NCBI RefSeq assembly: GCF_057098645.1
Contig: NZ_CM169472.1
Length of the DNA stretch: 64,000 bases
Strand: one strand, 5' to 3'
The position numbers were made by a program. Positions within the stretch are counted from its first letter, which is position 1. Each line of letters begins with the position of its first letter. Below, piece after piece: positions 3,001 through 6,000 of this stretch.

Positions 3001-6000
3001 GCTGGCAAACCGCTATGACTGGCAGCTCTTTCTGGAGGTGACCGGTCCCGGCGGCAGCGGCAAAAGTATCATGGCCGAAATAGCCACCCTGCTGGCCGGT
3101 GAGGATAACGCCACGTCGGCCACTATTGAGACGCTGGAATCCCCGCGTGAACGTGCCGCGTTAACTGGCTTCTCACTGATACGCCTGCCGGACCAGGAAA
3201 AATGGAGCGGCGACGGTGCCGGACTCAAGGCCATCACCGGCGGCGATGCGGTGTCCGTGGACCCGAAATACCGGGATGCGTACTCCACGCATATCCCGGC
3301 GGTGATTCTGGCCGTGAACAATAACCCGATGCGCTTCACCGACCGCAGCGGCGGCGTGTCACGCCGGCGGGTGATTATTCACTTCCCGGAACAGATAGCC
3401 CCGCAGGAGCGCGACCCGCAACTTAAGGACAAAATCACCCGCGAGCTGGCGGTCATCGTGCGTCACCTGATGCAGAAGTTCAGCGACCCGATGCTCGCCC
3501 GGTCACTGCTTCAGTCCCAGCAGAACTCAGACGAGGCACTGAACATCAAACGGGATGCCGACCCGACGTTTGATTTTATCGGCTATCTGGAAACCCTGCC
3601 GCAGACCAGCGGCATGTATATGGGGAACGCCAGTATCATCCCGCGTAATTACCGTAAATACCTCTATCACGCCTATCTGGCCTACATGGAGGCAAACGGC
3701 TACCGGAATGTACTCAGTCTGAAAATGTTCGGGCTGGGGCTGCCGGTGATGCTGAAGGAATACGGGCTGAATTACGAGAAGCGCCATACCAAACAGGGGA
3801 TACAGACCAACCTGACGCTGAAAGAGGAAAGCTACGGCGACTGGCTGCCAAAATGTGACGACCCTGCAACAACCTGACCCACCTGACCGGCATCTGCCGG
3901 TCTTTTTTTATCCCGACATCCCCCGAAGGTGAACAATCCACTGTTCACCCTTCACCGTATATTCACCCGTTATCACACTGAAATTAAAAGAGAAAAACGA
4001 AAGGTGAACAGTGTGAACAATCAAATCAAAAAAAACTTTTTTCTCCCTGCGTGATTTTCAGTGCAGGGGACTAATCGCCGGTATGAGTCACACCGGCAGA
4101 ATACCGGAGGTGAAGAATCGAATGTTCACCCTTCACCCATTATTCACCACCTATCATACTGAAATAAAAGGAGAAAAAAGAAAGGTGAACAGTGTGAACA
4201 GTTCTTTCGAAAAAAAATTTTTTTCCTGAGTTAACGTGCGTGAAGATACGTGTAAAAATTAATCGATAGATATTATATGTATAAGGATGTGTATAAATGA
4301 ATTATACTAGAAAAATATAAACGATTTGAATCAAATGTTTATATGGCAATTTTGACTCCTGTGATCTCCGCCAAACTTCCTCTTCTGAACTCTCCCGACG
4401 TCAACAAAACCCCTTTTAATCCCTTATATATCAGGCTTTCTTTGTGTACAGGGGTCAACCGACTCAACCTGTATCAAGTTGCTTTTGAGGATACTTTAGG
4501 GGGGTATTATTTCCTTTTGAAATATTAGCACCCCATAATGGGAAAAAGGTAATACATAACAATGGTTTTTAACAGTATCTTTGTTATACAAGGGGGCATT
4601 GAGGATATCAGGAAAAATCTCAAAATCGGTACGGACAGGAAACTACGTGGGCAGCAAAAACGTATGGTAACACCGGGAAATGCAACGCCCACCAGTCGGG
4701 CTAATCCACCACTCCAATCGTGGTTCGCAGTACTGCACACACGATTACCGGGCTATACAGGAGCGGTTTGGTCTGAAAACATCCATGCCGCGTAAAGGTA
4801 ACCGTTACGACAACACCTCAATGAAAAACTTATAGTAAACGCTGAAGAATGAAACTATCGTTTTAATAACCGGGATGAAGCCATCTAAGTAATACGGAAA
4901 TACATTGAGATTTTCTACAACCATCAGCGCCGCCACTCCCGTCTGGGGAATATCTCCCTGGTAGCCTTCAGGAAAAATATAACCAGATAACTGCGTAAAA
5001 AAAGAACAAATGGTGGTGTCCGCTATTGCCAGTATACCTGAGTTTACTGCCTTTCAGATTATCACAATCAATAGCGAACAGACTTTTGAGCTCTGTGCGC
5101 TTTTAACAAAACGTCCCTTTCTCCACTTTCACCGTATAATAATACATTATTTATTACCCCTCCAATAAAAACCGATATTACTAATCACATTTATTACCAC
5201 ACAATTTGATATCGGTTTTTATTAGTTGGTTACCCTTTCTTCGATTGCTCATAGGCAGCTAAATGATCTTTTAATGCCTGTGCAAGGGGCGGTAGTCCAC
5301 TAGGCCCTGTCGGTGGCGGTGGTGCCTGACGGGCGGGCTTAAAACCTAAAGCCTCAGGACCTTTCGATTTTTCATAGGCAGCCAAGTGCTCTTTTAATGC
5401 CTGTGCAATGGGCGGTAAAGGTCGGGATGCCCCGGATGCCTGTCCACTTGTCGGTGGCGGCGGTGCCTGACGGGCGGGCTTAAAACCTAAAGCCTCAGGA
5501 CCTTTCGATTTTTCATAGGCAGCCAAGTGCTCTTTTAATGCCTGTGCAATGGGCGGTAAAGGTCGGGATGCCCCGGATGCCTGTCCACTTGTCGGTGGCG
5601 GCGGTGCCTGACGGGCGGGCTTAAAACCTAAAGCCTCAGGACCTTTCGATTTTTCATAGGCAGCCAAGTGCTCTTTTAATGCCTGTGCAATGGGCGGTAA
5701 AGGTCGGGATGCCCCGGATGCCTGTCCACTTGTCGGTGGCGGCGGTGCCTGACGGGCGGGCTTAAAACCTAAAGCCTCAGGACCTTTCGATTTTTCATAG
5801 GCAGCCAAGTGCTCTTTTAATGCCTGTGCAATGGGCGGTAAAGGTCGGGATGCCCCGGATGCCTGTCCACTTGTCGGTGGCGGCGGTGCCGGACGAGAGG
5901 GAGTAAATGAAGTCACCTGGCTGCTCACATTAAAAATCGTTCTCGCATTAACATTCGACGAGCCTGGAGAAAAAGGGGAATGAACTTTCACCGGAGTAAG

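Follow-up and report, generated by a model that had tools for sequence, protein, structure and literature searches.

In the 64-kb window, which is the whole stretch of DNA that was analyzed (64,000 nucleotides), the end of a P4-like satellite prophage is followed by a short mosaic region and then by espF of the classical LEE pathogenicity island known from EPEC and EHEC. The prophage side contains a P4 alpha-type primase-helicase gene (1544-3877) and, downstream of it, two 120-nt direct repeats that are 83% identical (3923-4042 and 4104-4223) and carry GGTGAACA/TGTTCACC octamers; this repeat pair resembles the P4 crr replication region. Alignment to selC places a duplicate of its 3' end, TTTGACTCCTGTGATCTCCGCCA, at 4351-4373 on the plus strand, as the attR of the prophage. 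It is followed on the same strand by a leader of selC-integrating islands that lacks its integrase (4374-4612), by 62 bp from the interior of an IS630-family transposase gene, NLKIGTDRKLRGQQKRMVTPG (4616-4677; E 3e-7 against 28 Gb), and by the 3'-terminal remnant of an IS600-like IS3-family element (4683-5041). The remnant ends in its right inverted repeat (IRR), and an LEE-specific spacer (5042-5229) separates this from the stop codon of espF. espF (5230-6117, minus strand), the last gene of LEE4, encodes a protein of 295 aa and is convergent with the transposase remnant.

The remnant was defined by blastn, tblastn and Pfam, and a full-length, 1264-bp IS600 copy from E. coli MBT-5 (L004:904-2167) served as the reference. 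Local blastn aligned IS600 nt 895-1262 with window 4683-5039 at 85% identity (85.3% over 368 aligned columns, E 4e-112), and extension of this alignment to the IS terminus, colinear to the last base, places the end of the remnant at 5041. The 359 bp in the window match the last 370 nt of IS600 (nt 895-1264, the 3' terminal 29% of the element) and contain the C-terminal third of OrfB, as a pseudogene, together with the right inverted repeat. In a blastn search of 5426 complete E. coli genomes (28 Gb), IS600 copies matched the remnant at ~85-86% (E ~1e-100 to 2e-100), and IS600 was the closest element both in this collection and in a plasmid collection, where the maximum identity was 87.5%. At the protein level, tblastn matched IS600 OrfB residues 184-284 to two frames of the window (joint E 2e-38), at 71% identity in one segment and 83-85% in the other. 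Pfam analysis of the stop-masked translation gave 36.2 bits for rve_2 (cut-off 22) and 32.4 bits for rve_3 (cut-off 26.5), and rve itself, with 21.4 bits, stayed under its cut-off because the domain is truncated.

An IS3-family OrfB remnant had been proposed for 4560-5040 in the original prediction, based on two peptides. Both were found, ERFGLKTSMPRKGNRYDN in the frame opening at 4683 and FYNHQRRHSRLGNIS in the frame opening at 4856, and the family assignment was borne out by the tblastn check with IS600 OrfB. The right end of the proposed interval also holds, but its left end does not: IS3-family homology starts at 4683, and sensitive blastn and tblastn searches found no IS600 homology in 4560-4682, which contains the end of the leader and the IS630-family fragment. 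An ATG-initiated ORF at 4562-4795 is a chance frame that crosses these pieces and has no Pfam match. The IS600 homology breaks off abruptly at nt 895, beside the IS630-family fragment, and IS600 nt 1-894 (IRL, OrfA, frameshift site and OrfB N-terminus) had no match in the whole window, where a search for further IS600-like pieces was also negative. As the reading frames are fragmented, one could ask if the motifs are a chance resemblance with no transposase origin at all. This reading can be discarded against 85% nucleotide identity that reaches the exact IS600 terminus, a tblastn match of this significance and two rve-type domains over their curated cut-offs, and the similarity points, far beyond chance, to a fragment of an IS3-family element. 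In the ISfinder naming convention, the same IS name needs roughly ≥90% nucleotide or ≥95% amino acid identity. By this convention the fragment would be an IS600-like relative, or a much-decayed copy, and not IS600 proper.

The remnant has accumulated several inactivating lesions. In the IS600 alignment, the OrfB frame is interrupted by tandem premature stops, TAG TAA (4833-4838, plus strand), and by a third premature stop, TAA, at 4886-4888, and two deletions are seen, one of 10 nt after about 4852 and one of 1 nt near 4970. The region with the first catalytic Asp is deleted, the second catalytic Asp is changed to Asn (HHSNRGSQY vs. HHSDRGSQY in IS600) and the catalytic Glu, 35 residues further, is changed to Lys (SMKNL vs. 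PMESF in IS600); the two residues were placed in the DD(35)E triad on the basis of the general rve fold. The left terminal inverted repeat, OrfA and the -1 frameshift site for OrfAB are all missing. The IRR, GTGTCCGCTATTGCCAGTATACCTGA (5016-5041, plus strand), agrees with IS600 at 24 of its 26 positions, and its terminal dinucleotide is GA instead of CA, which is the same in all LEE copies examined. The search for terminal inverted repeats that had been suggested as a check was successful on the right side and not on the left. With the left end lost, the remnant has no second flank in which the short (3-bp) target-site duplication of an IS3-family element could show. Because it has one end only and has no capacity to encode a transposase, it is immobile, an inert fossil. 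A short match, CCTGAGTTTA at 5037-5046, coincides with the IS end, running from the tip of the IRR into the flank, and equals IS600 IRL nt 9-18; it was rejected as a real signal and is probably due to chance (local E 8.3).

The next question regards where the prophage ends. The selC 3' end copy is imperfect and can be traced over 4345-4373 (GGCAATTTTGACTCCTGTGATCTCCGCCA), and the selC 3' end of O145 RM9872 is repeated, imperfectly and in direct orientation, at window 4345-4382. A complete P4-like prophage with attL and attR is present in O145 RM9872, where the order is yicJ, intact selC, integrase, GapS4a, psu, delta ... primase, IS3 pseudogene and espF; in the window itself, ARAGORN found no intact tRNA. 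The two selC repeats are what is expected for attL and attR when a P4-like element has integrated into a tRNA gene. In O145 RM9872, GapS4a (L013:7414-8322, outside the window) directly follows the integrase of the selC P4-like satellite, and the post-integrase position in P4-like satellites often holds anti-phage cargo.

It had been suggested that the remnant lies exactly between the prophage crr region and espF and marks a recombination scar, possibly from the joining of the two elements. The remnant does lie between the crr-like repeats (3923-4223) and espF, and mosaic joints are often marked by IS fragments. Yet it is not the exact boundary: the prophage stops at the selC 3' repeat, about 310 bp upstream of the remnant. 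E2348/69 and 2022H047 have intact selC, leader, IS630 sliver, identical remnant and espF without any prophage, and this undivided selC-leader-remnant order also contradicts a variant in which a past prophage deletion ended at the remnant. The homology of O157/O55 genomes to the window begins only at 4351-4354, so that they share the LEE-side DNA from the att copy on, and the DNA upstream of it is non-homologous; O157:H7 strain 611, for example, has other gene content there next to the same LEE-side DNA. Moreover, O111, whose LEE is of the pheV type, and another Escherichia species have truncated versions of the remnant. A scar of prophage/LEE joining is by these data extremely improbable. The alignments place the prophage/LEE boundary at the att copy and not at the IS fragment. 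Since the identical remnant is present in the prophage-free E2348/69 and 2022H047, and since the boundary is at the att copy, the prophage integration was independent of the remnant: the P4-like prophage came separately, by site-specific integration into selC, with the IS remnant uninvolved.

The DNA that separates attR from the remnant consists of the leader and the IS630-family fragment. E. coli B and strain 98224 have a homologue of the leader (84% identity) that lies between selC and a gene for a tyrosine integrase, but in the window no integrase follows the leader. About 2159 of the 5426 E. coli genomes match some part of window 4373-4682, mostly the leader. We also considered 4374-4612 as ordinary backbone downstream of selC and rejected it, as K-12 has only selC and ~15 nt in common and the homologous stretch in E. 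coli B and in strain 98224 runs into an integrase gene. In O157:H7 strain 611 (L001), the leader is interrupted by ISEc8 (IS66 family), which is flanked by an 8-bp duplication, at the equivalent of window 4402-4409. Several other O157:H7 genomes also match the window only from 4402, and O157:H7 PV15-279 and F3113 have the leader without the ISEc8 insertion. The IS630-family fragment directly adjoins the left side of the IS600-like remnant. In O111:H8, nleE and efa1 are separated by an IS630-family pseudogene to which the fragment is 82% identical, with the same orientation relative to espF; at 82% identity, both its orthology with this pheV-type island copy and a derivation of the sliver from an O111-type nleE-efa1 layout are unproven.

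On the LEE side, the spacer is common to selC-type LEEs, O111 and MOD1-EC7003, and O26 has it only from window 5140 on. In espF, a proline-rich repeat of 141 bp (47 aa) occurs four times, the first three copies being identical, and is followed by a terminal module. The espF allele of O157:H7 strain 611 is shorter (248 aa), so the number of espF repeats varies between LEE lineages. Beside the espF stop codon, E2348/69, 2022H047 and O111:H8 have a 43-bp segment with ATTAGTTGG repeats on both flanks, which is missing in the window (5229/5230) and in O157; this looks like a slippage deletion between the ATTAGTTGG repeats.

Of the 5426 complete genomes of E. coli, 383 have the full selC-type junction. 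E2348/69, 2022H047 and O157 strain 611 agree with the window in the left breakpoint, in both deletions, in the premature stops and in the CA to GA change, and the remnant is also present in O145. The junction between IRR and spacer has a wider distribution, as it is common to the window, E2348/69, 2022H047, O157, O145, O111:H8 and Escherichia sp. MOD1-EC7003. In O111:H8, which has a pheV-type LEE, the remnant is kept from about window 4950, where it is cut by an intact IS3, and in MOD1-EC7003 it is kept from IS600 nt 1110 and joined to an unrelated ORF; in both the right junction is the same. A scan with a 21-mer of the spacer led to one Escherichia sp. contig, and the exact remnant junction was found in none of the species-representative genomes. 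Two further observations were made in O111:H8 strain 9662, in which the IS3-cut remnant region is at L005:1683-3360: its spacer has an insert of about 127 bp, presumably ERIC-like by the consensus, and its espG is unusually near the espF side, which suggests a rearrangement.

O26:H11 has neither the remnant nor the IRR/spacer junction. In O26:H11 FWSEC0001 a transposase pseudogene (L006:2366-2716) lies between efa1/lifA and espF, at the position of the remnant in selC-type LEEs. It was considered as the left half of the same IS and rejected, being a different transposase (IS256-family by eye) with no IS600 similarity. The insertion of the remnant may postdate the earliest LEE splits, or the remnant may have been deleted in O26-type LEEs. 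The LEEs of O111:H8 and O26:H11 are located at pheU/pheV (PMC3893438).

Because the same remnant is found in prophage-free strains and its right junction is shared elsewhere, it is an old, inherited feature of the LEE edge, and the occurrence of one junction in independent LEE lineages indicates that this feature is conserved. The remnant marks a mosaic junction that is older than that of the prophage, namely the one at which the LEE core meets a selC-island leader that has no integrase.

Another question that is raised by this conservation is whether the remnant has a function. The remnant of the window has 99.4% identity to that of E2348/69. Its neighbors have similar values (spacer 98.9%, escG 97.8%, escF 100% and cesD2 99.0%), and the leader (93.7%) and espB (71%) are more diverged. 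One option is that the remnant was exapted and is kept for LEE function, as a 51-aa ORF (4680-4835), as a regulatory RNA or as 3' end signals of LEE4/espF, and the higher identity of the remnant relative to the adjacent leader would fit this option. However, the spacer, escG, escF and cesD2 are equally conserved, and because of this no special constraint on the remnant needs to be assumed; it appears to lie in a low-divergence block. Most of the remnant is lost in O111 and MOD1-EC7003, and all of it in O26. The 51-aa ORF is merely the broken OrfB frame, an Rfam scan of 3860-5300 returned nothing relevant, and the promoter/terminator scan found such sites at background level, without excess. 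Exaptation is for these reasons very unlikely.

A more probable history, and the simplest one, is that the LEE edge received an IS600-like IS3-family element, next to espF and outside it, in a single old event, and that this element then decayed. Its right junction with the espF spacer is constant across LEE lineages, and the remnant is passed on passively with the LEE. The left side, in turn, would have been remodelled repeatedly; the element is trimmed there to differing extents and joined to different DNA. In the selC-type LEEs, including that of the window, its left neighbors are the 62-bp IS630-family fragment and the integrase-less leader. We consider it highly probable that the remnant derives from an old IS600-like insertion beside espF; the data show that it is now a dead tail, inherited with the LEE and separate from the prophage. 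We further infer that the island with which the LEE came to selC may have lost its integrase module through successive IS insertions and IS-associated deletions. From the anatomy of the locus we suggest, with moderate confidence, that the leader without an integrase and the two IS slivers form the scar of such an IS-associated deletion of the integrase module; no LEE lineage was found in which leader, integrase and IS600-like element are still in line.

A more tentative proposal, about which we are somewhat more doubtful than convinced, regards the whole of 4374-5041 as a deletion scar. Here an ancestral mobile LEE element would have lost its P4-type integrase, possibly together with an efa1/nleB/nleE-type module, the selC-type LEE would thereby have been locked in place, and the LEE core would ancestrally have had its outer limit at the IRR of the IS600-like element. 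If this is true, the limit set by the IRR is common to several lineages and to at least one other Escherichia species.

By itself the remnant is of little importance, as it is a dead IS fragment that the NCBI pipeline has flagged in many LEE-positive genomes. In O157:H7, O145, UTME-3 and E2348/69, the counterpart of 4683-4998 is listed by PGAP as an 'IS3 family transposase' with a frameshift, internal stops and a truncated N-terminus; the remnant is already known in public annotation and is an ordinary IS pseudogene. Reviews describe IS fragments as a component of pathogenicity islands and report that the LEE flanks vary between selC, pheU and pheV (PMC7545054, PMC3408504, PMC3893438). Our full-text literature search, whose reach did not extend to the original LEE sequence papers, returned general statements of this kind and no published description of the remnant. 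The significance of the locus is in its junctions. The prophage/LEE boundary is corrected to the selC 3' repeat at 4351-4373, and the combination of a constant right junction with a variable left junction can serve as a marker for ordering the events at the LEE flank. The order that it suggests is an IS insertion near espF, followed by the loss of the integrase module and by later, independent integrations at selC.

Several known systems can be compared with this locus. The pseudogene between selC and espF in the prototype LEE of EPEC O127:H6 E2348/69 (E2348C_RS21075) and its O157:H7 and O145:H28 equivalents have the same locus, breakpoints and lesions, with identities of 99.4-99.7%. In E2348/69 an intact selC directly precedes the locus, whereas here the P4-like prophage in selC shifts the locus by ~11 kb and a 23-nt attR copy is kept after its integration. 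The IS remnants of O111:H8 and O26:H11 are found at the same place, the outer edge of LEE4. The O111:H8 remnant shares the IRR/spacer junction but has an intact IS3 as its left partner, whilst in O26:H11 the left partner is efa1/lifA and the IS family differs (IS256-family by eye). With IS600 itself, an element of the IS3 group within the IS3 family that is known from Shigella and E. coli, the remnant shares the OrfB C-terminal domain (rve_2/rve_3), the colinearity over nt 895-1264 and 24 of 26 IRR positions. It differs from IS600 in the absence of nt 1-894, in its stops, two deletions, D to N and E to K changes and terminal CA to GA change, and in a nucleotide identity of only 85-88%, which is below the thresholds for sharing the IS600 name.
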